A stretch of DNA of 46,735 nt from Deferribacterales bacterium (GTDB lineage Bacteria; Chrysiogenota; Deferribacteres; Deferribacterales; Geovibrionaceae), in contig JBFWLW010000017.1 of NCBI GenBank assembly GCA_050251945.1, positions 1 through 46,735 of the forward strand, written 5' to 3'. Within the stretch, counting starts at the first letter, position 1, and each line of letters starts with the position of its first letter. The position numbers and the translations under genes are program-made. Shown here piece by piece: positions 1,493 to 44,279 of this stretch. The notes under the pieces are model-generated. The model searched no databases, was not told the DNA's origin, and saw only the letters and a program-made list of their open reading frames with translations.

Positions 1493-3211
1493 GTGAAAAG
1501 ACTTTTTCCGCTGTACTACAACAAAGTGAGTCCGTGTTATGCCAGAGACCACATCGGCAACCACGGATGCTACGCCAGAAACGATATTCCGAGATTCCTC
1601 TTTCTCGCCTCCGAAGGGCGTTTTGAGGAAGCTTTTTATGTTTTAAAAGATACCAACCCTTTCAGTTCAGGCTGCGGACGCTTCTGCGACCATCCCTGCG
1701 AAACAGCCTGCAACCGGACTAAGTTCGATCAGCCCGTGGACATCAAGGCGCTTGAGCGTTTTGTTTCCGATTACGGATATTCAAAGGGGCTTGCACCGCA
1801 AATGCTTGCGGGCGATAAGGGGAAAAAGATAGCCGTGATAGGTTCCGGTCCTGCAGGGCTTTCGGCAGCATATTTCCTTTCGCGCCACGGCTACCGCGTC
1901 GACGTTTACGAGAAACAGCCCGTAGCAGGCGGTCTGCTCACACAGGGTATACCCGCTTTCCGCTATCCGCGGGACGTTTTCGATAAGGAGCTTGACTTCA
2001 TCAAGGCATCCGGCGTGAACGTCAAATGCGGCGAAGCCATAGACAAAAACAGATTTCTGAACATCGCCCGCGACTATGACGCTGTTATAGTCGCGACAGG
2101 CGCGCATAAGCCTGTGGAGATAGGCATAGAGGGCGAGAAGACAACGGGCGTTGAATCGGCAATACCTTTCCTGCGCAAGATAAATTTCGGTAAAGCGGAT
2201 GAGCTTAAAATTAAAAAGGGCGAGAAGATAGGCGTCATAGGCGGCGGATATTCCGCCATCGACGTAGCCAGATGCAGTGTGCGTCTGGGTGCCGAACCGA
2301 CAGTTGTCTACCGCAGAACCCGCAGCGAGATGACAGCCCACTCCGGCGAGGTTGACGATACAATAAAAGAGGGTGTGTCGTATAAATTCCTCCGGCAGCC
2401 TCTGCGTATAGAGAAGCACGGCGACAAGCTGAAACTGGTTGTTCAGGTGATGAAACTGGGTCCCGTGGACGAGAGCGGGCGGGCAAAACCGTTCGCCGTT
2501 TCAGGCGCTTTTGAGGAACTGATGTTCGACCGCATCGTGCTTGCCGTGGGCGACAGACCTGACCTTTATTTTGTCGGTGAACGCTTCTCAGTGGATTTCC
2601 CGCGCATGGTCTGCCCTGACCTTCAGCATGAGGAAAGCAGTAAGGTCTTTATAACCGGCGACGCTGCCATGGGTTCTGTGGAGAACACAGGCATGGTTGT
2701 CAGGGTTGTCGGACTGGCGCAGGACACCGTTCGCTCAGTCCGTGAGTTTCTGGGCGAAAACGTGCCGCAGGAGACCAAGCGCGAAATAGCTTTTTACAAC
2801 ACGCTTAACACTAAATATTTTGATACCGCCGGACGGCTCATTGAAGAGGAACTGCCCCACGAAGAGCGCAGGGGCAACTTTAAAGAGGTTGTTCAGACCA
2901 TTGAAGGGGATATGGCGATGCTTATGGCTTCCCGTTGTTTCAATTGCGGTATCTGCATTAAATGTGACTGGTGCTACTTCTATTCCGACGGTTCTCTGGT
3001 TAAACTGGATAAAGAGTGGGTGCCTACGAAAGATGAACATTACTATGAATTTATAGAAGAAAATCTGTGCAGTGCAACATATAAGAGCGTCGAGGCGTGT
3101 CCCCGCTCCGCATTGACCGTTACGCCGGAGGGTTCCAGACTGGACGACTTCCGCAAGTGTCAGTATATATCCGCCTGCGAGATAACAAAAGGGGAGTGCA
3201 AAAATGATTAG
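1493..3211 (+). CDS. gltD: GltD-like FAD/NAD(P)-dependent Fe-S oxidoreductase (glutamate synthase small-subunit-like) with C-terminal ferredoxin motif
   Basis: GRFCDHPCETAC, GSGPAGL, VIGGGYSAIDVAR, C-terminal RCFNCGICIKCDWC; GTG start with GGAGGG RBS. Confidence 0.8.
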   Translation: MKRLFPLYYNKVSPCYARDHIGNHGCYARNDIPRFLFLASEGRFEEAFYVLKDTNPFSSGCGRFCDHPCETACNRTKFDQPVDIKALERFVSDYGYSKGLAPQMLAGDKGKKIAVIGSGPAGLSAAYFLSRHGYRVDVYEKQPVAGGLLTQGIPAFRYPRDVFDKELDFIKASGVNVKCGEAIDKNRFLNIARDYDAVIVATGAHKPVEIGIEGEKTTGVESAIPFLRKINFGKADELKIKKGEKIGVIGGGYSAIDVARCSVRLGAEPTVVYRRTRSEMTAHSGEVDDTIKEGVSYKFLRQPLRIEKHGDKLKLVVQVMKLGPVDESGRAKPFAVSGAFEELMFDRIVLAVGDRPDLYFVGERFSVDFPRMVCPDLQHEESSKVFITGDAAMGSVENTGMVVRVVGLAQDTVRSVREFLGENVPQETKREIAFYNTLNTKYFDTAGRLIEEELPHEERRGNFKEVVQTIEGDMAMLMASRCFNCGICIKCDWCYFYSDGSLVKLDKEWVPTKDEHYYEFIEENLCSATYKSVEACPRSALTVTPEGSRLDDFRKCQYISACEITKGECKND

Positions 3212-4400
3212 GAACGACGAATATTCGGCCTCCCGAAATCTGAGTGTAAACGACTTTTCCGGCGGCGAGCTTGGATTGCCGCAGGGTGCCTGCGGTCTGC
3301 TCGCGGTGGCGGGGGATTTCAAACTCAGCGCACTTCTGAAAGCGGCGAGATGCCTCCAGTACAGAGGACGTACCGGAGCCGGCGTCACGCTTAAAAGCCT
3401 TTACAGAGATACAGGCTTTTTCAACTTCCACATCATGTTCCGCAGCGGTGACAAGATTGCCGAACTGGAACAGGTGCTTATCACCATGGGGCTTCGCATC
3501 CTTGAAAAGAAGGATATGGTTCAGCGCAAGTATTATTATGAATACGACCTGCCTGTGATAATGCATTACAGCATCATTCCGCCCTCGCCGGAGGAGATGA
3601 TGTTCCGTGAAAAGATAAAGGACGAGGGCATATATATCAAACGCGTGGTTGCGCGTTTCAACCGTATATACATTGACGATGCCCGAATCTTTTCAAGCTC
3701 AAAATACAACGGCACCTTCCTGACGGCGTTCGAGCTTCAGGATACGATAGACATATATGATATGCACCAGTATGAGGACAGATTCTACGACGCATGTCTG
3801 ATCCACCTGCGCTGGCCTACCAGTCAGGGGCGCGGTCTGTGGTGGGGACCCCAGCCGATTTCTCTGGGCGAAGTGGCGGGCGTGCACAACGGTCACCTTT
3901 CAAGCGACATGGCAAACGCAAGGGCGCTGGAACAGCTTGAGATAATGCTCACCGTCGGCACGGATTCCGAGGCGATATTCCTTTCGGTGGAATATCTTCT
4001 CAGAAGCGGTTACAGCCTTGAGGAGATAGAATGGATAATGTGCCGCAAGTTCCCGCAGGAGGTTCGCCTCATGGCACAGGATAAGCAGGATCAGTATAAC
4101 AAGCTGATGGAGGATCCGCTTCTGTTCCGTATGAAAATGAGCGGTCCCGCAACTGCGATAACCCTTGTTGACGACGTTCTCGTGGGCTTCACGGACAGAG
4201 ACCATCTCCGTTCGTTTTCCGTAGGTGTTAACGAGAAGATAGCACTGCTCGGCTCCGAGCAGAGGGCGGTTATCTCCGCGGCGTATTTCATGCACGAGGA
4301 ACTTAAGATGTTCGACCCCGAAGCCGGATGCATAGTCGGTTTCAACGTTAAGAACAAAGCGGTTTCCAAACTGGACTATGGGTGGAAGAAAAATGACTGA
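3204..4400 (+). CDS. Class II (Ntn) glutamine amidotransferase, stand-alone glutamate synthase domain (GltB1-like)
   Basis: Leader ending QGA|CGLLAV, QYRG, HLRWPTS, HNGHL, GTDSE; overlaps neighbours by 8 bp. Confidence 0.8.
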   Translation: MIRNDEYSASRNLSVNDFSGGELGLPQGACGLLAVAGDFKLSALLKAARCLQYRGRTGAGVTLKSLYRDTGFFNFHIMFRSGDKIAELEQVLITMGLRILEKKDMVQRKYYYEYDLPVIMHYSIIPPSPEEMMFREKIKDEGIYIKRVVARFNRIYIDDARIFSSSKYNGTFLTAFELQDTIDIYDMHQYEDRFYDACLIHLRWPTSQGRGLWWGPQPISLGEVAGVHNGHLSSDMANARALEQLEIMLTVGTDSEAIFLSVEYLLRSGYSLEEIEWIMCRKFPQEVRLMAQDKQDQYNKLMEDPLLFRMKMSGPATAITLVDDVLVGFTDRDHLRSFSVGVNEKIALLGSEQRAVISAAYFMHEELKMFDPEAGCIVGFNVKNKAVSKLDYGWKKND

Positions 4401-7119
4401 TATAAAAAGAGACGTTGTCTTCAAAAGACAGATAAAATATACGGAACCCGACTCCCGCGGCATTTTTGCACAGGGGGCTAAATACTGGGTAAAGGTTACG
4501 GATGAGATTGAAGAGCCGGGCAGGGGATGTGTCCACTGCTCAACCTGCGTCGAGTCCTGCACACACAACCTCACGAACCCGTCGTCTTCCAACGGCGTTT
4601 TCAGCATGGAGGAGGTCTGTTACGATGCGGACGGGAACCGTGTACGCGCGGATGATGCGGACAAGGTTCGTCTTATCGAGAAGATACTCTGGATAAACCC
4701 CGACGAGTGCTGTAACTGCAAAAGATGCGTTAAAATGTGTCCCCAACGGGCAATCAAGGTATACGAAAACCCCGATTATCACGATATCGGCGTTACGCTC
4801 ACCGGACACGAGGAGATAAACAACATCCTCAGCCGTGCGGCGGGAAAATCAAGCATATCGTCCGCACATCTGGGACGGGGCAAGTCAAAGCTTTATACCG
4901 ACTGGCTCATAGACGCGGCGGAGATACTCTCACCCACGCGGGATCATATGAACGAATATGCGGGTCAGATGCGCAGTATGACGCTCGGCAAACGCCATGC
5001 AAGATTCAGATGCGACGTGCCGATAATGGACGTTCACCAGTCATACGGCTCGAACAGCCATGAGGCGGTTCTGGCAAGGATGATGGCATGCGTTAAGCTC
5101 GGCAGACCGTTCTTCACAGGGGAAGGATACATCCACCCCGACATGATGCCCGCCGCAAGCCACTGTATTCTGCAGTTCGGCTCAGGCGGTTTCGGTCCCT
5201 GGGTTGAACTGGACAAGTTCGCCGGAATATCCATGAAATACGGTCAGGATGCGAAAAAAGGCAAGGGCGGCAGACTGCAGGATAAGAAGAACGACTATGA
5301 GATAGCGCTTCTTCGCTGTGTTGAGGCGCTCAGACACCTAAGCTCGCCCAACCCTCAGCATTTGCAGTATTCCATTGAGGAACTGCCCATGCGCGTCGAA
5401 TCCCTCCGTGCGCTCCTTGGCGATGAAAAGCTTATAGGTGCGGACGTTTACGGCACGGCATGGAACTTTCCTGAAATATGCGTCGCCATAGCGAAAGCCG
5501 GATTTGACTACATAACCATAAAAGCGGGCGACGGCTCCACTGGCGCCGCACACCTTGTTGATCTCCAGAACAGAGGTCTGAATATAATCTATCTTACCCA
5601 CAAAGCTGACCTTGCACTCCGTCAGGAGGGTCTGCGCGAACACGTTTCCATAATCTCCGAAGGCGGGGTCATGGATTCATTCGGCGCGATGCTTACTATG
5701 CTTGCAGGTGCGGACTTTGTCGGTATGGGCATGCGCACGCTCCACGTTCTGGGCTGTACGCTCTGCCAGCGCTGTCATACAGGTCAGTGCGCATGGGGTA
5801 TCACATCCAGAAAATTCGGACACCGCATCGACCCTGCCACCGCCAGCGACGGCATTGTGCGTATGATTAAGAGCTTCCACGAGGATATGGAGGGCATGGC
5901 GGCAGGACTTGGCATGTCGAACCATGCGGACGTTATCGGTGCCCGCCGTTTCCGTTACCACGGAAGCGACCCGCTGTTGTTTGAAACGTTCGGCAGGGGA
6001 GAAACACCCAAGCAGGTACCCCATGTGGATGTTAAGGAACGCACCAAAAAGATATTCAAATCACGCGAGGTTTCATACGCAGAAGATACTGAAAAATTTG
6101 AAAAAATTCTGCAGAATATTGACGGTGAAAACCTCAAGATAGACGTAGGTTTCGACCAGATAGAATCAATGCAGCTCAACCACCTTATGAAAGAGGCGGC
6201 GGACAGGGGCGTTAAAAAATTCTATCTGGATAACGTTATGGGACAGAGAACCATCGGCACGGGGATCAAATGCGATGAGATCACCGTCAGAGGGCTTGTG
6301 GGCAACCATGCTTTCGCCTTTGCCCGCGACGTGAAAATAAACGTTATTCCGAACCACAGCACCATCACCACTGTTCCCGCAAATGCTCAGGTTGGCGTTG
6401 CAAACACGTCAAACCCCACTGAAATAAATATAGCTGGCGACGTGAGCGACCTTTTCGCGGCGTATGCCATCAGCGGAACGTTCCGCGTTGCGAAAAGCGG
6501 CGGCGTGCGCAACCTGCTGCTTATGAAAGCGGGTTTGCCCGAAGAGTGGAAAAAGACCGATGCGGAAAAATATGTCGGTGCGGACAAGAACGTGATACTG
6601 AACGAGCTTGTGCGCAGATATCAGAAACGCAAAGCCAGACGTGTCAAAACAACATGGGGCGACTTCCTGAAAGCCTTTGAGCAGAAACTTCACAACAGAA
6701 AGCCTCCCGTTGCCGTTTACGGTCTCGGACATGAAAAGGGCATGGGCGACTATTTTATGGAGTATGCGCAGGGCGGTATAGGTGTTGTTCTTAATGTCGT
6801 GAACCGCGAAACCCCCATCGGCTACTATGTATGCAGCGGTATGACCGCAGGTGCGGCGTATATCCGAGGCAATGTGGAAGAAGAACGGCTTGGGGTCGGC
6901 GTGCGCAAGATAGATTATCTCACCATGGCAGATACGGAATTTCTGAAAGAGCAGATAGACGCTTTCCTTGAAACTTTCAGCGGTATAGATATTGACCCTG
7001 AATACAACGAGAGCCTGAAAGCATTCCGGACTCAGTATGAAACCGAACCGAACAGTGTGTTTGGCGGGTTTTGCAAGATTATACCGATATCGAGCTTAAC
7101 CACCGAATCCAACGAATAG
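4393..7119 (+). CDS. gltB: Glutamate synthase-like subunit: N-terminal 2x[4Fe-4S] ferredoxin + FMN domain + GXGXG beta-helix
   Basis: CVHCSTCVESC and CCNCKRCVKMCP; SYGS, TGEG, KYGQDAKKGKGG, GDGSTGAA; 3Fe-4S motif CTLCQRCHTGQC; C-terminal GMGDYFMEYAQGG and SGMTAG; start taken at the ATG overlapping the upstream stop. Confidence 0.85.
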   Translation: MTDIKRDVVFKRQIKYTEPDSRGIFAQGAKYWVKVTDEIEEPGRGCVHCSTCVESCTHNLTNPSSSNGVFSMEEVCYDADGNRVRADDADKVRLIEKILWINPDECCNCKRCVKMCPQRAIKVYENPDYHDIGVTLTGHEEINNILSRAAGKSSISSAHLGRGKSKLYTDWLIDAAEILSPTRDHMNEYAGQMRSMTLGKRHARFRCDVPIMDVHQSYGSNSHEAVLARMMACVKLGRPFFTGEGYIHPDMMPAASHCILQFGSGGFGPWVELDKFAGISMKYGQDAKKGKGGRLQDKKNDYEIALLRCVEALRHLSSPNPQHLQYSIEELPMRVESLRALLGDEKLIGADVYGTAWNFPEICVAIAKAGFDYITIKAGDGSTGAAHLVDLQNRGLNIIYLTHKADLALRQEGLREHVSIISEGGVMDSFGAMLTMLAGADFVGMGMRTLHVLGCTLCQRCHTGQCAWGITSRKFGHRIDPATASDGIVRMIKSFHEDMEGMAAGLGMSNHADVIGARRFRYHGSDPLLFETFGRGETPKQVPHVDVKERTKKIFKSREVSYAEDTEKFEKILQNIDGENLKIDVGFDQIESMQLNHLMKEAADRGVKKFYLDNVMGQRTIGTGIKCDEITVRGLVGNHAFAFARDVKINVIPNHSTITTVPANAQVGVANTSNPTEINIAGDVSDLFAAYAISGTFRVAKSGGVRNLLLMKAGLPEEWKKTDAEKYVGADKNVILNELVRRYQKRKARRVKTTWGDFLKAFEQKLHNRKPPVAVYGLGHEKGMGDYFMEYAQGGIGVVLNVVNRETPIGYYVCSGMTAGAAYIRGNVEEERLGVGVRKIDYLTMADTEFLKEQIDAFLETFSGIDIDPEYNESLKAFRTQYETEPNSVFGGFCKIIPISSLTTESNE

Positions 7120-8324: not shown

Positions 8325-8517
8325 ATATGATGCTCCGTTACACACAAACGTTATAAACCAATTATATGATACCTTATCTGAATAGATAAATAAATAGTCA
8401 AACTTTATCCGTCAGGTAAAAATCACGTTTTATGTCCTTTTTTTGTGTTATAATCCCAATTAGCTGATATTGCTATTTATAATTTTTTACTGATTGACTT
8501 TTAATTGGAGTTTTACT

Positions 8518-10407
8518 TTGCAGGACAGTAAAAGAGCCGTTTTGCTCTTCGTGCTTCTATCAGTTCTGACCATAGCCGCCGGCGCTGCTGTTGCCGTGTA
8601 CTGGTATGAGAATACCAAGTCCATCTACGAACAGCGTCTGATTGAGATAGTGCGCGCCCGCAAGGACATCTTCATATCTGTTTACGCACGGCTTTATGAA
8701 GACAGCCCCGAAACGGCGGCGGCGGACGCCATTGATATACTCAGAAAAAGTTTTAGTCCGACAGTATATAAAAGATATTCCACAGAGTTTTACACTGCCT
8801 CGCTCACAGGCGGCAAGTTTGCAGTTTTAAGCCACAGCAGGCGCGATAATCTTGATGAACATTCAGGTGATTTTTCAAACGTTCCGTCGGATTCCATACT
8901 CGCCATGGCGCTTTCGGACAGAAGCGGGCTTACGTCAGCTATGGATTTTACCGGAGAAAAGGTTCTTGCCGCATACGATCATGTGGATATAGGGAACGTC
9001 CGCTACGGCATGGTGGCGAAGATAAAGTATATAGACGTAATATCCCCCAAAACAAGAGCGGTGGTTTCGTCGGTGCTTATGGCGCTGGTGATAATCGTCG
9101 GCGGCGGTCTGGGGTTTTATATATTCTCCTCGCGCCGTGTGGACAGGCTGGTCAAGGCGAAGAAGGAACTTGAACTTTACGGAAATATTTTCGACAGTCT
9201 GGACGAATACGTCGCTTTTCTTGATAAGAATATGAGATACCTGTCCGCTAACAAGGCGTATCTGACCATTCTTGACGCGAAACCGGAGGAGATAGTCGGA
9301 AAGCCGTTCGGCGAAAAAATGAAAAAAAACCAGATGGACGAAATACTCTCGCCATACTTTGCAAAGGCGCTCAAAGGGAGCTTTGTGGCGTTTTCAGGCT
9401 GGTTCTCTCTGCCGGGCAGAGGAGAAACATATCTGGATGCATCGTTTCTGCCGCATATCGTTGAGGGCGAAGTGCAGGGTATTGTCGTGCGAGCCAGTGA
9501 CAGAACACAGGAAGCGGTTGCGAAAGAGGCTCTGATAGCCCGTTCCAGAGAACTGCAAAGACTTACTTCCGATCTTGAGGAGCGGGTGCACGAGGAGACG
9601 GCGAAGCGCATGATGCAGGAACAGCTTTTCTTCGAGCAGAAGAAATTTGCAGATATGGGGCAGATGATAAATGCCATAGCACACCAGTGGCGCCAGCCCA
9701 TAAACTCCGTAGGACTGTATATTCAGCTTGTATATGAAAGTTTTAAAGATAAATCGCTGGATGAGGATATGCTGGAAAACTTTAAGACGGATTCCATTAA
9801 ACTCATTCAGCATATGTCAAAAACAATCGACGATTTTCGCAGTTTCTTCAACCCGAGGAGCGAGGAAACTTCTTTTGAGGTTATCAAGGCGGTGATAGAC
9901 ACAGTATCCCTTGTGGAGGCACAGCTTAAGAACGTTTCAATAGATTTTGCAGTGACATGCCGATGCAGAGAACGGGATTTCGAGGTCTGTAACAACCTTC
10001 TGCGTCCGCCGTGCGAACTGCCCGAAACGCTTGTTAACGGTTTTTCATCCGAATTTCGTCAGGTGCTTATGAACCTTGTTCAGAATGCGAAGGATGTTCT
10101 TTTCGACAGACAGGGTAATAAAAAGGTGACGATCGCGGTTTCCGCTCTGGACGAAAACGTAACGGTATCAATCTCCGACAACGGAGGCGGTGTGCCTGAA
10201 AGCATAAAGAAAAAGATATTCGATCCGTATTTCACAACAAAACCGGAGGGCAAAGGCACGGGGATAGGGCTTTATATGTCGCGCCTGATAGTTGAAGAAC
10301 ACATGGGCGGCAAGATATCGGTGTATAACGACGAGGCGGGAGCCGTCTTTGTTATAATCCTGCCGAGGGTCAGCCCGAAGATGAAGAAGATTAATCCTGC
10401 AGTGTGA
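8518..10407 (+). CDS. Membrane PAS sensor histidine kinase with Cys4 insert in the ATPase domain
   Basis: Two TM segments, PAS domain, H-box IAHQWRQP, N-box MNLVQNA, DNGGG, GTGIGL; TTG start after GGAG (ORF open from 8494). Confidence 0.9.
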   Translation: MQDSKRAVLLFVLLSVLTIAAGAAVAVYWYENTKSIYEQRLIEIVRARKDIFISVYARLYEDSPETAAADAIDILRKSFSPTVYKRYSTEFYTASLTGGKFAVLSHSRRDNLDEHSGDFSNVPSDSILAMALSDRSGLTSAMDFTGEKVLAAYDHVDIGNVRYGMVAKIKYIDVISPKTRAVVSSVLMALVIIVGGGLGFYIFSSRRVDRLVKAKKELELYGNIFDSLDEYVAFLDKNMRYLSANKAYLTILDAKPEEIVGKPFGEKMKKNQMDEILSPYFAKALKGSFVAFSGWFSLPGRGETYLDASFLPHIVEGEVQGIVVRASDRTQEAVAKEALIARSRELQRLTSDLEERVHEETAKRMMQEQLFFEQKKFADMGQMINAIAHQWRQPINSVGLYIQLVYESFKDKSLDEDMLENFKTDSIKLIQHMSKTIDDFRSFFNPRSEETSFEVIKAVIDTVSLVEAQLKNVSIDFAVTCRCRERDFEVCNNLLRPPCELPETLVNGFSSEFRQVLMNLVQNAKDVLFDRQGNKKVTIAVSALDENVTVSISDNGGGVPESIKKKIFDPYFTTKPEGKGTGIGLYMSRLIVEEHMGGKISVYNDEAGAVFVIILPRVSPKMKKINPAV

Positions 10408-15224: not shown

Positions 15225-15343
15225 TAAAACGAAGGTGAAACGGCCTCATTCATTTTCAATCTTAATCTGACATTTCTTTGATAATAAAAACAAGGCGATG
15301 CTTTATATTAAATAAGCGGCAAAACTCCATTGTGAGGCATGTC

Positions 15344-17080
15344 ATGTCAGTTCAGAAGCGTACCTTTGTTTTTATCACTGCTATTATAATTCTCATATGT
15401 ACAATATACACCTGTCTTCTGGAATATGAGGGCGCACGGCAGGCAGCGCAGGCGTCGCGGGAGAAGAAAGAGGTCATAACAGGTCTTTACAATGATTTCC
15501 CCATCCGCATCGACAAATTATTAAGCCAGAAAACAAGAGAGCTGGCTTCCGACAGGGACGTAGTTTCAGCTCTGAAAAAAGGCGACAGAACCGCCCTGGC
15601 TTCTGCCGCATATAAACTTTATGACAGGATGTCGGACGAGTTCAACCGCGAAAAGATCATCATGAATTTTATAATGCCCGACGGCACAATTCTTCTGCGT
15701 ATGTCCGTTCCGAAAAAATACGGAGATGCAATGAATGGCAGCAGAGTGCTTTTCGACAGGGCGGTGCAGACGGGTTTTGCCCAGTCCGGAACGGAAGAGG
15801 GACTGAGCGGGGTTTTTATCCGGAATATCCTTCCGATCTATTCCGACGGCGTATGCATAGGCTATGCAGAGGCGGGCGTTACCCTTGATTTTCTGGTGAA
15901 ACGCATAAGCGCCACCATGAAAATGGATGGGGCGGTTCTGATTTTCAGCAGATTTGCCGACGCCATATCCGGCATCACGGACTATACGAGATTTTCCGAC
16001 AGATACATGCTTTTCAGCACCGACGACGTGCTTTTCAGGTCAATACTCACACATTTTTACGGAAAAGACGGTGAGGATTCCCACGAGTCGTATCATGACA
16101 AAAGATACCATATCATAAACGGCATAGATATTCCCGACGCAACGGGGACGGTAATAGGCGAACTGGTGTTCCTTTCCGACGAGACGGGGCAGTATCATAA
16201 GATGATGCGCCATATCGTAATTTCTGCTCTCATAGGTGTATTCATAATCCTTATCTCAATACTTGTGATGAAGCGTAACTTTATCGACCTGATAGGCGAT
16301 CTGGAATACAGGCACAATAAGATTGAGCAGAAACTCAAAGATTACAGCCGCAATCTTGAAACTCAGATGGATACGGCACTTGAGAAGCTTGCCGAATCCG
16401 AACAGACCATACAGAACCGGAAAAAGATGTCCGACATAGAGCGCATCACCGACGCTATGTCCCAGAAGCTTGCGAAACCTCTGTCATATATGAAGAACAG
16501 CATACAGAAGATGGAGAACAGCGAAGCCGCTAAAGAACAGCTGGGGCTGATAATGGAGATGGAACAGTATCTTGACGAGGTGAACAGCTATTTCCGCAAA
16601 TACGACGGGAAAGAGGTATTTGACGTTTCGGAGGAGATTCAGGCGCTTCTTTACATCATGCGCAGTCACCTGAAACAGAACGACATAAAGGTCTATCTTA
16701 CGGAAAAGGACGATATCAGCATGGAGGTTTTCGGGTACAGGGGCGAGTTTAAACAGGCTCTCATGAACGTTATAACCAACTCTGTGGACGCTCTGAAAGT
16801 GAAACACCCCGACTCGGTTGATTTTGAAGCGGCTGTCCGTATAAATGTGGAGGTGGACGGCGGAAGCGTACGGGTCACCGTTACGGACAATGGAGGCGGA
16901 ATTGAGAACATCGCACGGATATTCGATTCCGGTTACACCACAAAGGGGAGCGGATACAGCGGTCTTGGGCTTTTCATTGCCAAAAATATAATCGAAAAAC
17001 ATATGAACGGGCGCATCTATGCACACAACACAGATGACGGCGCTTCATTTATCATCCTTGTTCCCGCCTTTCAGTCCTGA
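15344..17080 (+). CDS. Cache-domain sensor kinase-like protein with degenerate H-box
   Basis: Two TMs flanking a Cache-like region; intact N/G1/G2 boxes (MNVITNS, DNGGG, SGLGL); H-box reads DAMSQKLAKP; start MSVQK after GAGG. Confidence 0.8.
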   Translation: MSVQKRTFVFITAIIILICTIYTCLLEYEGARQAAQASREKKEVITGLYNDFPIRIDKLLSQKTRELASDRDVVSALKKGDRTALASAAYKLYDRMSDEFNREKIIMNFIMPDGTILLRMSVPKKYGDAMNGSRVLFDRAVQTGFAQSGTEEGLSGVFIRNILPIYSDGVCIGYAEAGVTLDFLVKRISATMKMDGAVLIFSRFADAISGITDYTRFSDRYMLFSTDDVLFRSILTHFYGKDGEDSHESYHDKRYHIINGIDIPDATGTVIGELVFLSDETGQYHKMMRHIVISALIGVFIILISILVMKRNFIDLIGDLEYRHNKIEQKLKDYSRNLETQMDTALEKLAESEQTIQNRKKMSDIERITDAMSQKLAKPLSYMKNSIQKMENSEAAKEQLGLIMEMEQYLDEVNSYFRKYDGKEVFDVSEEIQALLYIMRSHLKQNDIKVYLTEKDDISMEVFGYRGEFKQALMNVITNSVDALKVKHPDSVDFEAAVRINVEVDGGSVRVTVTDNGGGIENIARIFDSGYTTKGSGYSGLGLFIAKNIIEKHMNGRIYAHNTDDGASFIILVPAFQS

Positions 17081-23436: not shown

Positions 23437-25434
23437 ATGGAGAAAGACTTTTTCCGTTCCATTATCAGCAAGGCTGACTTTGGCTATATACTTTTAAGTT
23501 CCGACGCTGCCGAAAATTTCCGCGAAGCTGTCATTCTGGACGCAAACGATGCGTTCTCCGCTATGACAGGCTGCACCGCGGCGAAACTTATCGGCAGGAA
23601 CGTAGCCGATCTGGAATGTCCGTTCTTTACGAACGACTTTGAAAGCATCGTTAAAGATGCGATAACCATCCCCGTTTTCTATTTTGTTGCCGAGCTTGGC
23701 AAAGGGTTTCACATCGAATCGGTGAGATCGTCAGGCGGCGAACTTGCGCTTATTGTGCGTGACGACAGCGAAGTGTCGTCCGCTGTCACTGCACTCAGAG
23801 AGAAACAGGAACAGCTCAAAACACTTATCAACGCCACACCCGACCTTATCTGTTTTAAAGACAGCAAAGGACGCTGGCTGGAGGCGAATTCAAGCTGTCT
23901 TGCCGCTTTTTCCCTTAAAAAAGAGGACTTTACAGGTAAAAACGATCTCGAACTCACAAACTACACCCTTCCCATATACAAAGAAGCTCTTGATGCCTGC
24001 GCTCATTCGGACGAAATGACATGGCAGAATAAGGTGATTAACCGCGAAGAAGAGGTTGTCGCAATGCCCGACGGTGTCGTGCGCGTCTTTGATACTATAA
24101 AGGTTCCGCTGTTCTACGATGATGAGAAGACTATGCGCAAAGGTCTGGTGGTTCTCGGAAGGGACATAACCGACCTGAAAAATGCATACGACGAGATAAG
24201 ACGTCAGGCGGGGCTTATAAAATCCCTGTTTGACGCTATTCCCGATTTTATTTTCTATAAGGATGCTAACGGCGTGTATCTCGGCTGCAACAAATCTTTT
24301 GCTGATTATGTCGGCGAAGATCCGGATAAGATAATCGGAAAGACTGATTTCGACCTTTTCAGCGACGAGGTTGCGAAAGAATTCATAGCCAACGACAGAA
24401 TAATGTTTGCGATGCGCCAGCCACGCGTGAATGACGAATGGATTGAGTTGAAAAACGGCGCAAAACGCCTTGTCGCTACGGTGAAAACTCCTTATTTCGG
24501 AATAAATGGTGAGCTTGAGGGTCTGCTTGGTATCAGCCGCGATATAACCGAGGTTCACAAACAGTCGCGTGAACTTCAGGAGATTAATTCCAACCTCCAC
24601 GACACCATCGTCAAAGAGACCGAGAAGAACAGAAAATACGAACAGATTCTTTTTAATCAGAAGAAACTTGCCGATATAGGCAACATCATAAGCGCCATGG
24701 CACACCACTGGCGTCAGCCTCTGAACGCTTTGGGGCTGTATATTCAGGATATCTGCCAGACATACAGGGACGGCAGTCTGGACAAAACCTACATCAAGGG
24801 GTTCGAGACCACCTGTATGCAGTTGATTGGCAGCCTTTCTGCAACTATTGATAATTTCAGTGAATTTTTCAGACCGCAGGGCAACAGTTCTGCTTTCAGG
24901 GTGATGTCCGAGGTTCGTGAGATTCTGAAAATATATGAAGCTAAACTCGCTTATCACGGGATCACATTCAACGCTTCATGCATCTGCGGTTCAAACTTCA
25001 TGGACTGTCAGGGCTTTTACGATAATTTGGGATGCGAATACTCAAACGTTATGGTCGACGGGTACAAGGACGAGTTTAAACAGGCATTTATCAATATTCT
25101 CCAGAATGCTGTTGACGCTGTGGATGAATATTCTGATGAAGTCAGAAAGGAAAAGACCATTTCGGTTGACGTCGATCTGGACGGCGAGCGTATCGTTATA
25201 AAAATATTCAACAACGGCAAAACCATACCGGAATATGTCGCGGAAAGGATATACAATCCTTATTTCACCACAAAGGGCGAAGGCAAGGGCACAGGCATAG
25301 GTCTGTATCTTACTAAGAACATCATAGAGAACTATATGCACGGAAAGCTTTACTTTGAAAATATGGAAAGCGGGGTTGTGTTCTATATCGTTCTGCCTGT
25401 CAGGAAACCTGATCCGGTTTCCCGCTCAGTCTGA
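23437..25434 (+). CDS. Cytoplasmic multi-PAS histidine kinase with Cys4 insert
   Basis: Three PAS-like repeats (PDLICFKD, PDFIFYKD), MAHHWRQP, INILQNA, NNGK, GTGIGL. Confidence 0.92.
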   Translation: MEKDFFRSIISKADFGYILLSSDAAENFREAVILDANDAFSAMTGCTAAKLIGRNVADLECPFFTNDFESIVKDAITIPVFYFVAELGKGFHIESVRSSGGELALIVRDDSEVSSAVTALREKQEQLKTLINATPDLICFKDSKGRWLEANSSCLAAFSLKKEDFTGKNDLELTNYTLPIYKEALDACAHSDEMTWQNKVINREEEVVAMPDGVVRVFDTIKVPLFYDDEKTMRKGLVVLGRDITDLKNAYDEIRRQAGLIKSLFDAIPDFIFYKDANGVYLGCNKSFADYVGEDPDKIIGKTDFDLFSDEVAKEFIANDRIMFAMRQPRVNDEWIELKNGAKRLVATVKTPYFGINGELEGLLGISRDITEVHKQSRELQEINSNLHDTIVKETEKNRKYEQILFNQKKLADIGNIISAMAHHWRQPLNALGLYIQDICQTYRDGSLDKTYIKGFETTCMQLIGSLSATIDNFSEFFRPQGNSSAFRVMSEVREILKIYEAKLAYHGITFNASCICGSNFMDCQGFYDNLGCEYSNVMVDGYKDEFKQAFINILQNAVDAVDEYSDEVRKEKTISVDVDLDGERIVIKIFNNGKTIPEYVAERIYNPYFTTKGEGKGTGIGLYLTKNIIENYMHGKLYFENMESGVVFYIVLPVRKPDPVSRSV

Positions 25435-27613
25435 AATCCATCACAACGGTGAGTCCGCCAAGATGGTTGTTGAACGCCGCCACCTTGCCGCCGAGGTTCT
25501 GTTCAGTCAGAACCTTGACCATATAGAGACCGATACCTGAAAACTTCGCGTCGTTTTTTGTTGAAAAATACGGCTCAAAGATGCGTCCCAATATTTCCGG
25601 CGGAACGCCTGTTCCGTTGTCCTCCACGCTTATGGTGACCCTTTCGTCTGAACATACTATGTTTATGGAGATGCTTCCCTCCATGTCCGGCTGTTTCTCC
25701 ATGCGGTCGATTATCGCCTCATAGCTGTTGCTGAGTATGTTCATGAGCATCTGGCGAAATTCCCCCGGCTGACCGTAAAGCGTTATCTCGCTGCATCTTT
25801 CGCATGACTGACATGGAGAAAAGTGTATGTCCGGTTCCCGCCTGCACATGAACTTTGTTTTAATGTTTTTTGAGGCGATATGTACGGAAAGCAGTGCGTG
25901 GGTGTTTTTCAGTTCATTAACAACATTGAATTTTTCTTTTCTGTCTCCTGTTTCAAAGAACAGTCTGAAATTGTCTATGGTATCAGACATCTTTTTTATC
26001 AGCAGCATGGCTGTTTTTTCAAAGTCGGTGTATTGCGGCGATGTTTCGTCAATGTTCAATGTGTCCGGTACGGATTGCAGCATAATACCGAGTGCGTTCA
26101 ATGGCTGTCTCCATTGGTGGGCTATGGCGCTTACCATAAGACCCATATCCGCCAGTTTTTTCTGTTCCGCCAGAATGTGCGATTGTCTGCGGTTCTTTTC
26201 AACCTCTTCCTCAATACGCTTTTCAAGGTTTTTATTGATGGTTTCCAGTTCAATGTTGAGCTCACGGAGCTTATTTTCCATTTCGATGGAGTGAGTTATG
26301 TCAAGGCAGTTGAACAGCAGCGACCTTTCGTCCATTTTGACAGCCTTGGCTATCATAGCTGTCTCTTTCCCTGTTCTGCTGACCATGTACAGAACGCCGG
26401 AGTTGCTGCCTTCGTGAAATGCCTTGGAATAGAATTTATTTATGTCGGTGCGTCTGTTTTCAGTAACAAAATCGTAAAGGCTTTTTATCATCAGTTCGTT
26501 CTTTTTCATTCCGACCATATCAAGAAACCGCATATTGGCGTCAGTAAATATCTTTGAATCGTTAGTAGTGAAAATAGACATGGGCGAATTATCTATGTAT
26601 TCTTTATATTTCTCTTCGCTGACAAGCAGTTTGTTGATTGTCTGCTCGTGTATCCTTTCGAGTGCCCCGACAGTTCTGTTGAACCCGATGCGGATAAGCA
26701 GAAGAGAGATGATGCAGAATACCATTGTTATGAAGACCACGCTGAGAGTGTACGAAAGCATCGCTGAGACGTCGGATGTAACGTCTTTGGCGTATATGAA
26801 CCTTCCCATCTCCCTGCCTTTTGCCGAATAGAAGCGCATATCGTCGGAAATGCGGTAATGCATGTTGCCTATGTTAACCATATCCGGCAGTTTGTCATAA
26901 TTTCTGACAGAATTGAGCAGCCTTCTGAACATGGCTTGGTCGGTGTTCTGCATGAGGGCATATCTGCCGTATCGCGGCGCACCGTCTATTTTGTTTGCGT
27001 CGGTGTCCGCAAGCACAGCCATGCTGTAGCCTGTTGCCTGCTCCATTGCCCTTCCGTAATATTCGAGCGATGTACCGAGTTCAACAACGCCTATAAGGGT
27101 GCCGCTGCGGTAAAGAGGCAGAGCTGAAAATTGGAATATTTTGTCGGTACATATTTCATATGCGTTGCCTGCGGCTTTCCCTGAGAGTTCGTTTAATGCG
27201 GCGTCAGATATCGGTTTTGGGCAATGGTCGGTTCTGCGGTCGCTGGAAAAGAGCAGTCTGCCGTCTTTTGCAATGATGCGGAAAACAAAGGAATCGTCAG
27301 GGAATTCAAAATCCAGAGCGTTGGTGTGCATGGACATCCTGCCCATGAGAAGAGGTATGTCCCTGTTATCCACAGCCTCTATCAGAGACGAGTCGTATAC
27401 AACTCTGTTCAGGTTTGATTTAAGCACACGAGAAAGCTGAGATGTAAGAAATCTCTGATTATTTTCAACAATATAACCTTCCTGCCTCATGGCAGAGTTA
27501 TATTCAAAGTAGCGCACGGTTATGTTTGAAACCGCGAAGAATACGCATACAGTTATGAGTACAATACTGACGTAAATAAATGTTTTCTGTTTAATGCCTT
27601 GGTTATATTCCAT
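25400..27613 (-). CDS. Membrane Cache+PAS histidine kinase with Cys4 insert
   Basis: Two TMs, PAS, IAHQWRQP, MNILSNS, DNGTG, SGIGL; overlaps the convergent kinase by 35 bp; start could be 27646. Confidence 0.9.
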   Translation of the reverse strand: MEYNQGIKQKTFIYVSIVLITVCVFFAVSNITVRYFEYNSAMRQEGYIVENNQRFLTSQLSRVLKSNLNRVVYDSSLIEAVDNRDIPLLMGRMSMHTNALDFEFPDDSFVFRIIAKDGRLLFSSDRRTDHCPKPISDAALNELSGKAAGNAYEICTDKIFQFSALPLYRSGTLIGVVELGTSLEYYGRAMEQATGYSMAVLADTDANKIDGAPRYGRYALMQNTDQAMFRRLLNSVRNYDKLPDMVNIGNMHYRISDDMRFYSAKGREMGRFIYAKDVTSDVSAMLSYTLSVVFITMVFCIISLLLIRIGFNRTVGALERIHEQTINKLLVSEEKYKEYIDNSPMSIFTTNDSKIFTDANMRFLDMVGMKKNELMIKSLYDFVTENRRTDINKFYSKAFHEGSNSGVLYMVSRTGKETAMIAKAVKMDERSLLFNCLDITHSIEMENKLRELNIELETINKNLEKRIEEEVEKNRRQSHILAEQKKLADMGLMVSAIAHQWRQPLNALGIMLQSVPDTLNIDETSPQYTDFEKTAMLLIKKMSDTIDNFRLFFETGDRKEKFNVVNELKNTHALLSVHIASKNIKTKFMCRREPDIHFSPCQSCERCSEITLYGQPGEFRQMLMNILSNSYEAIIDRMEKQPDMEGSISINIVCSDERVTISVEDNGTGVPPEILGRIFEPYFSTKNDAKFSGIGLYMVKVLTEQNLGGKVAAFNNHLGGLTVVMDFRLSGKPDQVS

Positions 27614-27667
27614 AGTGAAGTATAACCCGCGAAAGTTGACATTCAAATGAAAGTTGATAAAAAAGAG

Positions 27668-40615: not shown

Positions 40616-41491
40616 TCAGTATGAGTTAATATTCGTACCCGCCGCGAAAGGAAAATCTTCGGGTTTAAAGCCTTCGATTTCAGTGAACAGTATCGTGCCG
40701 CTGCCGCAGGCTATCTCTATGCCGTCGTCGGATATGTTGAGAACAGTCCCGACGTCTCCGTAATCACCCTGCCATTTCTCCGGTTTTGCCCGCCAGACAA
40801 CGTATCTTTGCCCTCCCGAAAGGAAATAAGCCCCGAAATACGGGTGGCTGTATGCGCGTATATGATTGTAAAGACTGAAAGAATCCCTGTTGAAGTCTAT
40901 AAGTGCGTCCCGCGTGCGTTTCCTTTGCATGTAAAATGCCGCGGCATCGTTCTGAGGAACGGGTGTAAAGCCGTCAATCCCTTTGATATAAAGAGCTTTT
41001 ATGAATTCCGCACAGGTAACTGCGTACTTTGCAATGAAGTCTTCGGGGTAATCCTCGAAACCAATTCGTAACGGCGTTTTATAAATCACGTCGCCGCCGT
41101 CGATCTTTTCCCCACGAAGGTAAAAAGATGCACCGCTGACTGCCACGCCGCGCTCAAACTGCTCCGTAACGGCACTGTAACCCCTGTACAGCGGGAGTTG
41201 TGAGGGATGAGCATATATGACGGGAAACTCCGCACCGTCAAAGAAATCTTTGGTGAAATCCACGCATACCGGAAGTCCGATATCTCCGAGGATGTCCTCC
41301 GACTCCGAAAAATTATTTGAGCTGAGGTAAGTTATTATAAAGTCTTTTTCAAACCTTTCAAAGCCGCATGCAAGACCAGTGCGCTGGAAACCTCTGGTGT
41401 AGGTTACAACACGGGGGAAAAGTCCTTCAGATTTCAGGTCTTCCAGAAGCATCACGCCTGTGACATTAGCTGTGAACAGGGTTATGTTCAT
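40616..41491 (-). CDS. Formyltransferase-family protein (Fmt/ArnA-like, divergent N-terminus)
   Basis: HPSQLPLYRG, IDGGDVI, C-terminal IDF...YNHIRAYSHPYFGA and IACGSG. Confidence 0.8.
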   Translation of the reverse strand: MNITLFTANVTGVMLLEDLKSEGLFPRVVTYTRGFQRTGLACGFERFEKDFIITYLSSNNFSESEDILGDIGLPVCVDFTKDFFDGAEFPVIYAHPSQLPLYRGYSAVTEQFERGVAVSGASFYLRGEKIDGGDVIYKTPLRIGFEDYPEDFIAKYAVTCAEFIKALYIKGIDGFTPVPQNDAAAFYMQRKRTRDALIDFNRDSFSLYNHIRAYSHPYFGAYFLSGGQRYVVWRAKPEKWQGDYGDVGTVLNISDDGIEIACGSGTILFTEIEGFKPEDFPFAAGTNINSY

Positions 41492-42006
41492 GTATTTTTC
41501 CGCCTCACGATGAATGTGATACCTAAAATTAAGATAACAATTGTTATGACATATATGTACATATAAGACGGTTCCGCATCGCTGTAAAGCTTTAAGCTTT
41601 CGCCTGTGTTCAAGGCTCCTATGCCTTGGAAGGTATTGTCATGATATATTGAATCTATTGCGCGCACCGCTTTTCCGCCGGAGGTCACCTCTGCGTGGAG
41701 GTTCTCCTGTGCCGGCAGGTCAGGCCCAATGAACTGAACGTAATATGCCGCTCTCACAGGCTGCGGCACATCGCCTGTTCTGGAGGCAATGCTGAATCCT
41801 TTCAGCGGGGCTTTCATTTCATATGCCGTATAGAAGCATCCGTTCCCGTCGGGCATAAATCCTTTTTCTGGGTCGGGCGACCACCCGCATACCGTTTCTT
41901 TTATCTCAAAGGACGAGCGTTCGTGTATTACGTTTATATCCAGTGTTCCCAAAGCCGATGCGTTAAGGGAGAAAAGGAATGTCAGAAAAAAAATCGTATT
42001 TTTCAT
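41488..42006 (-). CDS. Hypothetical exported protein with C-terminal membrane anchor
   Basis: Signal peptide (..LNASA); C-terminal hydrophobic helix plus RRK; ATGA overlap with the downstream gene. Confidence 0.7.
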   Translation of the reverse strand: MKNTIFFLTFLFSLNASALGTLDINVIHERSSFEIKETVCGWSPDPEKGFMPDGNGCFYTAYEMKAPLKGFSIASRTGDVPQPVRAAYYVQFIGPDLPAQENLHAEVTSGGKAVRAIDSIYHDNTFQGIGALNTGESLKLYSDAEPSYMYIYVITIVILILGITFIVRRKNT

Positions 42007-42296
42007 GATATTAAACCCCGAAAATTATAGAACATTGCAACCGTTTTAATGATATCAAAAAAATCAGACAGTTTCCACCAGAGCATAAGTTCATCTTTGT
42101 TTAACCGCCGATAAGGCTTAAATCAGCGTAGTTTAGGCTTGTTAATAGATTGTGCGCCTGCTGTTTTTACACTCGGCAAAATCTAACAAAATTATAGACA
42201 TGGATTTATAATTGTGTTATACGAAATTGTATACAGTATACCATTGGCGTATTAGTGCATGTCAGTGCATAAAGATAAATTTCCGTGGAGTGTGTA

Positions 42297-44264
42297 ATGG
42301 CACAAGTTTGCTACGGGTACTATAAGGATACCAAAATAGACAACAGAGGAAAAGACAGGTCTGATTGGACGGACTCTCCGTTCAAAACGCCTGACGAGTA
42401 CAGGGACAAACCGCTTAAGGTCTTTATAGACTGGGACGGTTTCCTTGTTTTTGACGAAAATGCAGATATTCTCGCGGCTCTTGCCAACTATATGCTTGAA
42501 ATCAGCGGTCACGGCTGCTGCGGACGCTGCTTTCCGGGCAGGGTCGGAACACGTCTTCTTGCCGAACAGCTTATGAAGATGAGAGCGGGTGCCTGCGAAA
42601 ACTCCGACATCGAAAAAACGGTGGAAATGGCGGAGTCAATATTCAATTCCGCGAAATGTACGGTAGCCCCCACATCCACCATCCCCGTTAGACTTTTCCT
42701 GACACACTTTAAAGATCAGATAACAAAACAGGTGAACAAGGACGGAATGGAGTTCTACCGCAAGGTAACGGCACCCTGCACGGCAGGATGCCCCGCGAAC
42801 GTACAGATTCCGGAGTTCATTGAACAGATAAAAGATCACAGATATATGGAAGCGCTGGCGACAATCCGCGAGACCATGCCCCTTCCGGGCGTATGCGGAC
42901 GCGTCTGCCCCCACCCCTGCGAGGCGAACTGCCGCAGAGGGCTTGTTGACGATACACCCGTCAGCATCATGGTTCTCAAACGCGCACCATGGGATTTTGA
43001 ATATTACAATAACAAGACTCCGAAACTGCCCGAAAAAGCAGCTGACAAAGGCAAAAAAGTCGGTATCGTGGGCGCCGGTCCCGCAGGGCTTACTGCGGCT
43101 TACTACCTTGCTCTTATGGGCTATTCGGTGAAGATATACGAATGGATGCAGGAACCCGGCGGTATGGTGGCTCTCGGTATCCCGGATTACAGACAGCCCC
43201 GCCACCTTCTGCGCCGCGAAGTTGACATCATAAAATCGCTGGGCGTTGAGATTGAATACGGCAAAAAGCTGGGCGATGAAAAAGACGACATCACAATTGA
43301 ATATATGAAAAAGAATTACGACGCTGTTCTGCTCACCATCGGTGCATGGAAATCGAGAGATATGGGTATCGAGGGTGAAAAAGAGGGATACAGCGGAGTC
43401 TTCGCAAGCGGTATCGGCTTCCTCCGCGAACAGGCAGAGGGCAAGGATACGGGCGTTAAGGGCAAAAAAGTTGTTGTAGTGGGCGGCGGTAACACTGCCA
43501 TCGACTGCGTGCGCGTTGCCCTGCGCGAAGGTTCTGCCGACGTTAACCTCGTTTACAGACGTTCCCGCGCTGAAATGCCTGCGGAACCATGGGAAATAGA
43601 CGACGCTATGGAAGAGGGCGTTAACTTCCACTTCCTCTGGAACCCCACAAAGGTAATAGCCGAAAACGGCAAGGTTGTCGGCGTTGAGGTTGTGGAGATG
43701 GTTCTGGGCGAACCGGACGAATCCGGCAGACGCAAACCGGAACCGAAAGCAGGATCTGAAAAAATAATACCCTGCGATGTCATTATTCCTGCTATCGGTC
43801 AGTTCACCGACCTGACCTTCCTCACGGAAAAAGAGGGGATCGCAGTTACGAAATGGAACACGTTCAAGGTCAGAGACGACCTTTACGATACCACCGACCC
43901 GAAGATATTCTCCGCAGGCGACTGCGAATGGGGTCCCATGACGGTTGTTAAGGCTATCGGCGCTGCCCGCTGGTCTGCGCTGATGATAGACCGTTTCCTC
44001 GAATCAGGAGCACCCTACCTTACGGAGCAGGAAACACTTGAGGTTTCGCTCTATAAGAACAAGGTGTTCGACAAGGCGGAAAAGGTCTGCGAACTTGAGA
44101 CACCCACAATTCACAGGACGCATCAGGCAAAAATGTCGGGCGAGGCAAGACGCAACAACTATGAAGAGGTGGAGAGATCCTTCACACTTCAGCAGGCTTA
44201 TGACGAGGCTACCAGATGTCTTCGCTGTGTGCGGATGGCAATGGTCGGTCTGGGAACGAAATAA
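42297..44264 (+). CDS. sfrB: SfrB-like NADPH-dependent flavoprotein (GltD family with N-terminal Cys-rich domain)
   Basis: N-terminus MAQV...IDNR...DWDGF...CCGRCFPG..GT recalled as Geobacter SfrB-like; GRVCPHPCE, GAGPAGL, GGGNTAID, EATRCLRC. Confidence 0.8.
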   Translation: MAQVCYGYYKDTKIDNRGKDRSDWTDSPFKTPDEYRDKPLKVFIDWDGFLVFDENADILAALANYMLEISGHGCCGRCFPGRVGTRLLAEQLMKMRAGACENSDIEKTVEMAESIFNSAKCTVAPTSTIPVRLFLTHFKDQITKQVNKDGMEFYRKVTAPCTAGCPANVQIPEFIEQIKDHRYMEALATIRETMPLPGVCGRVCPHPCEANCRRGLVDDTPVSIMVLKRAPWDFEYYNNKTPKLPEKAADKGKKVGIVGAGPAGLTAAYYLALMGYSVKIYEWMQEPGGMVALGIPDYRQPRHLLRREVDIIKSLGVEIEYGKKLGDEKDDITIEYMKKNYDAVLLTIGAWKSRDMGIEGEKEGYSGVFASGIGFLREQAEGKDTGVKGKKVVVVGGGNTAIDCVRVALREGSADVNLVYRRSRAEMPAEPWEIDDAMEEGVNFHFLWNPTKVIAENGKVVGVEVVEMVLGEPDESGRRKPEPKAGSEKIIPCDVIIPAIGQFTDLTFLTEKEGIAVTKWNTFKVRDDLYDTTDPKIFSAGDCEWGPMTVVKAIGAARWSALMIDRFLESGAPYLTEQETLEVSLYKNKVFDKAEKVCELETPTIHRTHQAKMSGEARRNNYEEVERSFTLQQAYDEATRCLRCVRMAMVGLGTK

Positions 44265-44279
44265 GGCGGAGCGGACAAA

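Follow-up and report, generated by a model that had tools for sequence, protein, structure and literature searches.

The ATPase domains of three divergent histidine kinases encoded on one contig of a Deferribacterales bacterium each carry a short segment with four Cys directly before the N-box helix, and the question raised by this locus is what such a segment is and what it does in that place. To our knowledge, the catalytic domains of sensor kinases have been treated as uniform, the known metal sites being located in input domains. A sequence-only reading of the window, by which is meant the whole analysed stretch of 46,735 nucleotides, had proposed a lineage-specific kinase subfamily with a Zn, Fe or Fe-S site in the catalytic domain that could gate many pathways.

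The first kinase, HK1 (8494..10407, + strand), is a membrane sensor kinase with PAS, DHp and HATPase_c domains, and no receiver gene was found on the same contig. Its H-box reads HQWRQP (9682..9699, +), with Gln at both H+1 and H+4. The Cys insert of HK1 (9958..10014, +; CxC-x7-C-x7-C) is flanked by the edge strand of the CA sheet and a short strand preceding the N-box helix. HK2 (23437..25434, +) is a cytoplasmic multi-PAS kinase with the H-box HHWRQP (24703-24720, +) and the insert CxC-x6-C-x8-C (24979..25035, +). HK3 (25400..27646, − strand) is a membrane kinase with dCache_3 and PAS domains, the H-box HQWRQP (26102-26119, −) and an insert with five candidate ligands, C-x6-H-x3-C-x2-C-x2-C (25793..25846, −). 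An extra Cys in HK3 (25652..25654, −) closes the neighbouring strand, roughly where Cys501 is found in SrrB, and was present in HK3 and all four of its orthologues. The HK2 and HK3 ORFs are convergent with 3′ ends overlapping by 35 bases, and this neighbourhood was maintained in all five genomes having both genes. A fourth kinase, HK4 (15278..17080, +), served as internal control. It is a degenerate member of the same group with a short loop at 16694-16735, just as had been read from the sequence. HK4 has SQKLAKP at 16460-16480 in place of the phospho-accepting His and retains the N and G boxes, and is likely a pseudokinase of the same H-box clade. PF02518 (HATPase_c) scored above the Pfam cut-off in HK1, HK2, HK3 and HK4. 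The sequence-only reading was thus right about the three segments, which are in frame, inside HATPase_c kinases, and have the positions and spacings given above.

Other genes of the window include three at 1493-7119 (+) that resemble a split glutamate synthase, namely a GltD-like flavoprotein, a 398-aa ORF (3204-4400) without a Pfam match, which we take to be amidotransferase-like, and a ferredoxin + Glu_synthase protein. At 42285-46487 (+), a fusion of NADH_4Fe-4S, Fer4_20 and Pyr_redox is followed by a NuoG-like molybdopterin-fold protein, and the two might possibly form an electron-bifurcating pair. The ORFs at 953-1369 (+, 138 aa) and 41488-42006 (−, 172 aa) matched no Pfam family at E 0.001.

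Neither chance nor artefact accounts for the segments. Cys makes up 1.3% of the long ORFs of the host genome, giving a probability of about 1e-4 per segment of at least four Cys in 19 residues, and its frequency was 8.5% in the long loops vs 0.7% elsewhere in the same kinase cores; chance clustering was ruled out on these grounds. A wrong frame or an overlapping-ORF artefact was rejected because the peptides lie in frame amid conserved kinase elements and are kept in orthologues. Absence of the Cys from orthologues had been named beforehand as one result that would speak against the proposal, and all four Cys were retained: in the HK1 orthologues of 7/7 other genomes (57-96% identity) and in those of HK2 and HK3 in 4/4 other genomes read, the HK2 count leaving out two remoter relatives (L077 and L078, 46% identity). 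A scan of contigs with one 73-aa query returned 6 close orthologues together with matches to the N-box alone. The closest named records were from Seleniivibrio and other Deferribacterales. An alignment of 13 HK1 orthologues (HK1 plus 12 out of the 16 nearest relatives in the database) showed the four Cys to be invariant vs only one of the 15 remaining insert positions. The statement that little else is conserved is correct to that extent, but it overlooked the register of a hairpin, in which +7 is Phe and the last Cys often follows a Pro. Likewise, a count of exactly four Cys describes HK1, HK2 and HK3 and not the family, in which the inserts have 0-6 Cys; four Cys in a fixed motif were therefore discarded as the mark of the family.

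The genome of the host, which is Seleniivibrio-like, contained 63 kinase-like ORFs, of which 62 could be aligned. Twenty-five of these formed one clade characterised by the H-box H-Q/H-W-R/K-Q-P. A long loop, defined as at least 24 residues between fixed anchors (mostly 29-33; most ordinary kinases have 11-18), was found in 15/25 kinases of the clade and in 0/37 of the others. Judged from these sequences, the insert appears to consist of 15-20 extra residues common to HQW(R/K)QP sensor kinases. In the host family, a profile of the insert matched all 16 genomes (6-16 copies per genome); elsewhere in the phylum it matched 4/52 genomes, and a Cys-rich insert was seen at three of these four loci. 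The profile under-counts, since a kinase of a distant family of the phylum (L197, G022:C10:39907-43701), with a 30-residue loop harbouring 3 Cys and 3 His, was missed at E 1e-8. One further clade member (G000:C2:45454-47010, −) displayed a 46-residue version of the insert with 4 Cys and 3 His.

The insert was also found in records named Nitrospirota (Thermodesulfovibrio hydrogeniphilus, Ca. Magnetobacterium, Magnetoovum and Magnetominusculus), Desulfobulbaceae, Riflebacteria and Magnetococcales. The claim of a subfamily therefore stands and the claim of a narrow lineage does not. The spread was taken from database matches of which about one quarter carry names. It should be read as a minimum, and the family comprises at least several hundred sequences. 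In the open-access literature searched, subscription journals and supplements being outside its scope, no paper on the insert or on the HQW(R/K)QP H-box was found, and the insert is apparently an undescribed but real variant of sensor kinases.

Most of the wider H-box clade is without the insert. A short loop was present in five of five plasmid-borne clade kinases of Campylobacterota and in 75/76 clade kinases from a metagenome scan (80 loci, picked by flanking motifs). In a tree made without the insert (103 rows sampled from 298), short-loop members nested among insert-bearing ones. The trait clustered in the FastTree phylogeny with the insert removed, requiring 15 changes vs at least 60 when shuffled; the insert groups of Deferribacterales and Nitrospirota were joined there without support, and the backbone was weak. 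The identical position, length and register would nevertheless argue for a single homologous insert.

The ligand pattern was followed through several sets of sequences. Of the 119 HK1 relatives, 114 had the first Cys and 111 the last; Cys stood at +2 in 85 and at +3 in 13 more, and 63 had the middle Cys. A long loop was found in 112 of the 120 relatives of P0111, a Nitrospirota member, and these displayed the first Cys in 107, the last Cys in 105, a His at +3 in 97 and a His at +1 in 69. All 97 with the His at +3 also had the last Cys, and only three of the 112 had a Cys at +2/+3. The Nitrospirota type may thus be written C-H-x-H...C, with His replacing Cys. In the HK1-relative set, a His at +6 to +8 and the middle Cys were mutually exclusive, the His occurring in 1/65 sequences with that Cys vs 17/52 without it, these being kin and therefore not independent. 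Conservation in both sets is inflated because the ranking was by likeness to queries that contain Cys. A less biased count was made of every long loop read from four genomes (n = 46), in which 0, 1, 2, 3, 4 and 5 Cys were found in 11, 5, 2, 8, 15 and 5 cases, respectively. The variance of 3.3 vs a binomial 0.9 indicates that the Cys come and go in an all-or-none manner. The Cys-free paralogues retained the length of the insert (28-33 residues between anchors) and its hairpin register. In the host genome (G000), a long loop without Cys occurs in the paralogue at C4:246614-248296 and a short loop in the one at C7:2274-4286.

Clustering of 337 sequences at 65% identity left 142 non-redundant long loops. 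Their ligands were distributed as C-C-C-C (n = 44), C-H-none-C (n = 32), C-C-none-C (n = 12), none (n = 10), end Cys only (n = 8), C-C-H-C (n = 7) and others (n = 29). First and last Cys were both present in 111 of these loops, a tight pairing that fits a metal or a disulfide alike, and about one third of the loops had only three obvious ligands. A tree-aware test of joint ligand loss pointed in the right direction without reaching significance (8 independent pairs, median p 0.125 and 0.375). His cannot form disulfides. The exchange of His for Cys and the odd numbers of Cys are therefore better explained by a metal than by disulfides, and three or four conserved, mutually exchanging Cys/His are what is expected of a tetrahedral Zn site.

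The AlphaFold2 model of the HK1 core had a mean pLDDT of 85.6 (blocks 85/64/80), the insert loop (64) being the weakest part of the CA model. The insert is placed in this model between the edge strand 109-115 and a strand 138-141 that runs into the N-box helix, with a bridge at 122-123. The model of P0243 from Thermodesulfovibrio hydrogeniphilus, made with an alignment hand-picked from insert-bearing matches, had block pLDDT values of 96/89/84 and displayed a strand 370-376, a strand 381-383, a helix 386-392 and Cys395, with Cys376 and His379 predicted at the turn between the strands. The insert is thus predicted to fold on the sheet edge as a hairpin (HK1) or as a hairpin with a short helix (P0243).

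The DHp-CA fold matched those of HK853 and ThkA, and Foldseek returned canonical kinases alone. A search of 177,635 sequences of solved structures with the insert profile gave no kinase match and a single unrelated one at E 0.27. In Pfam, no metal-binding family matched more than one of 39 insert segments even at E 10; sixteen families matched one segment each (best E 0.005), and none of the CDGSH, Fer4, Rieske, RING and HypA families matched the segments consistently. Among the best 25 NCBIfam matches per protein, the PAS domain alone reached the cut-off. The ESM Atlas yielded unnamed fragments and also HATPase clusters, mostly of Campylobacterota, aligning over 155-160 of 180 residues. A known metal-binding domain was accordingly unsupported by Pfam, solved-structure sequences, Foldseek and the ESM Atlas.

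The kinases of the clade are also unusual in their H-box and in their surroundings. In the host genome, position H+1 was Gln in 20, His in 4 and Lys in 1 of the 25 clade members vs Glu or Asp in 35/37 other kinases, H+4 was Gln in 24/25, and the phospho-accepting His was present in 24/25. The clade thus departs from the canonical H-E/D-x-x-T/N motif, while the N, G1, F and G2 boxes for ATP binding are intact. A receiver domain was encoded within 1 kb of 2/25 clade kinases vs 28/37 of the others. This orphan status and the Gln after the phospho-His make autokinase activity of the clade doubtful. In CrdS, according to one study, the H+1 change E372Q abolishes kinase and spares phosphatase activity, whereas the H+4 change N375Q abolishes phosphatase activity (PMC3510030). 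By analogy, Gln at H+1 may point to phosphatase-only sensors of the BumS type, and Gln at H+4 would point against them. The chemistry of the clade is accordingly unreadable from the canonical rules, the ATP boxes being intact. The receivers beside the Campylobacterota members had as best matches about six related receivers of the host genome, of which, by names read from sequence, four stand alone, one has a GGDEF-like domain and one has PP2C/ATPase-like domains. These are candidates for shared targets of the orphan kinases. In the host genome they lie at C13:55170-55586, C14:50763-52067, C9:65147-65566, C7:34250-35977, C23:8822-9178 and C4:133469-133912.

Cys/His exchange, all-or-none presence of the Cys and the hairpin models together favour a metal site, probably for Zn, over disulfides or an Fe-S cluster. 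The explanation preferred here, to which we give about even confidence on the basis of sequences and models, is that the insert would be a small Zn-binding knuckle bracing the sheet edge and tuning the kinase, and not required for its activity. One Zn(II) would be bound via the first Cys, the Cys/His at +2/+3, a variable third ligand and the last Cys. Such a site would mainly brace the sheet edge and the strand into the N-box helix, which might bias the balance of kinase and phosphatase without switching it; paralogues losing ligands would either retain a hydrophobic hairpin or drop the insert. A structural rather than an essential role is suggested since the insert is repeatedly absent, its ligands are lost and most clade members have a short loop. 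Loss of the insert or of its ligands was seen in about one third of long-loop paralogues. The earlier idea of a metal site in the catalytic domain is hence upheld as probable from the conserved, His-exchanging and jointly lost Cys, with Fe-S not favoured. The idea of a gate on many pathways fared worse: of the 46 long loops from the four genomes, 16 have no more than one Cys, and absence of the insert is recurrent, with short-loop members nesting among its carriers; a master switch is therefore unsupported.

Other readings were weighed against the structural Zn knuckle. The insert might instead be a redox or metal switch similar to that of SrrB, in which thiol oxidation, through either loss of Zn or a new disulfide, would constrain the sheet edge and alter the output of kinase and phosphatase; some ten sensors per genome that are otherwise unrelated would thereby gain a second input. 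We consider this unlikely, though more probable than the other rivals. The named hosts of insert kinases are anaerobes or microaerophiles, the insert begins in the loop of SrrB Cys464, and an additional Cys close to position 501 is found in 30/260 clade sequences, including HK3. The partner is missing in the remaining 230, however, many clade members are without the insert, 16 of the 46 long loops counted above have 0-1 Cys, and two disulfides are impossible in the His-rich versions. Alternatively, the catalytic domain might contain an oxygen-labile site made of an Fe-S cluster or a lone Fe. This would be most plausible for HK3, where C-x2-C-x2-C was kept in 5/5 orthologues and, in our view, resembles a ferredoxin core; the opening of the CDGSH [2Fe-2S] motif is similar to CxC-x6/7-C, and [2Fe-2S] sites with both Cys and His ligands are known. 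Against it, Pfam gave no Fer4 match in HK1, HK2 or HK3 and no CDGSH or ferredoxin family in the 39 segments (one weak Rieske match, E 0.045), the ligands differ freely in number and spacing, and a surface loop of 16-19 residues would be small for a cluster. We regard this as the least probable of the readings.

The persistence of length and hairpin register in Cys-free paralogues is also consistent with a clade-specific surface on which a common receiver, a sensor domain or a second kinase would make contact, Cys and His being secondary and no stable metal being bound. The orphan state of the kinases and the six or so related receivers would fit such a surface, and c-di-GMP binds the edge of the CA sheet in CckA, according to a review (PMC8534201). 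The surface residues of the insert are nevertheless the least conserved and the Cys/His the most, and Campylobacterota members lie beside receivers of the same type without having the insert; a contact surface is accordingly improbable, though ranked above Fe-S. Finally, the insert might be a redox-labile Zn-thiolate knuckle at the SrrB site, through which about ten orphan sensors per genome with the H-box Gln would read thiol or metal status and signal, possibly as phosphatases, to a few shared receivers. This reading appears rather improbable. If true, many sensors would converge on few receivers under one metal gate, in anaerobes belonging to two or more phyla, and the shared receivers would be the stand-alone receivers, the receiver-diguanylate cyclase and the receiver-PP2C.

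The insert places a Cys/His mini-domain on a spot of the CA domain for which redox control has been documented, in SrrB. Four-Cys, His-swapped, Cys-free and insert-free paralogues occur in one genome and constitute natural controls. In cultured strains, these controls would allow a test of the idea that control is generally exerted at the back edge of the CA sheet, and of the role played by the large HQW(R/K)QP clade in the absence of an acidic residue after its His. If the metal is merely structural, the insert will be a useful family marker and little more.

Among known systems, the canonical HisKA/HATPase_c kinases (Thermotoga HK853, ThkA, WalK and the FlrB-like 9p6i) share the DHp-CA fold and intact boxes with the insert kinases, and HK853 likewise has one Cys in the loop that bears the insert. 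They differ from the clade in having Glu/Asp at H+1 and Asn/Thr at H+4 where the clade has Gln. NreB and AirS, whose Fe-S clusters are located in N-terminal sensor domains according to a review (PMC8774646), are also sensor kinases with a Cys-rich site that could report oxygen or redox state, but in the insert kinases the ligands lie in the CA domain directly before the N-box and exchange with His. The five plasmid-borne Campylobacterota kinases read, among them one of Sulfurospirillum adjoining reductive dehalogenase genes, belong to the same H-box clade; unlike the insert kinases, all five are without the insert, and three of them lie beside a receiver gene. BumS of Campylobacter, described in two papers as a sensor without kinase residues that is capable of phosphatase activity alone (PMC11796366, PMC12469816), provides a precedent for phosphatase-only sensors.

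The closest precedent is SrrB of Staphylococcus aureus. The chain of PDB 6paj has two Cys 37 residues apart, at the end of the edge strand and at the end of the next strand, and these are taken to be Cys464 and Cys501 because the spacing agrees. According to three reviews (PMC8199190, PMC8774646, PMC8534201), the Cys464-Cys501 disulfide is redox-responsive and affects autophosphorylation; about 60% of the activity remains in the oxidised state, which makes SrrB's own switch a partial one, and the site lies in the catalytic domain opposite to the catalytic site. A similar pair, Cys455/Cys494, likewise opposite to the catalytic site, is proposed there for E. coli NarQ. The premise that catalytic domains offer no thiol precedent is thus unsupported, since the SrrB disulfide begins in the same loop as the insert. 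As in SrrB, the first Cys of the insert is in the Cys464 loop, from the edge strand to the pre-N-box strand, and remote from the active site. The Cys found near position 501 in HK3 and its like fall in one alignment column in 24 of the 30 cases, while HK1 and HK2 are among the sequences without this partner. SrrB itself combines a loop of normal, short length with two Cys and the canonical H-box HELRTP, whereas the insert kinases have 15-20 extra residues, three to five Cys/His and HQW(R/K)QP. The spot taken by the insert therefore has a regulatory precedent in SrrB, but the insert, with its Cys501 partner mostly missing, is not itself the SrrB switch.
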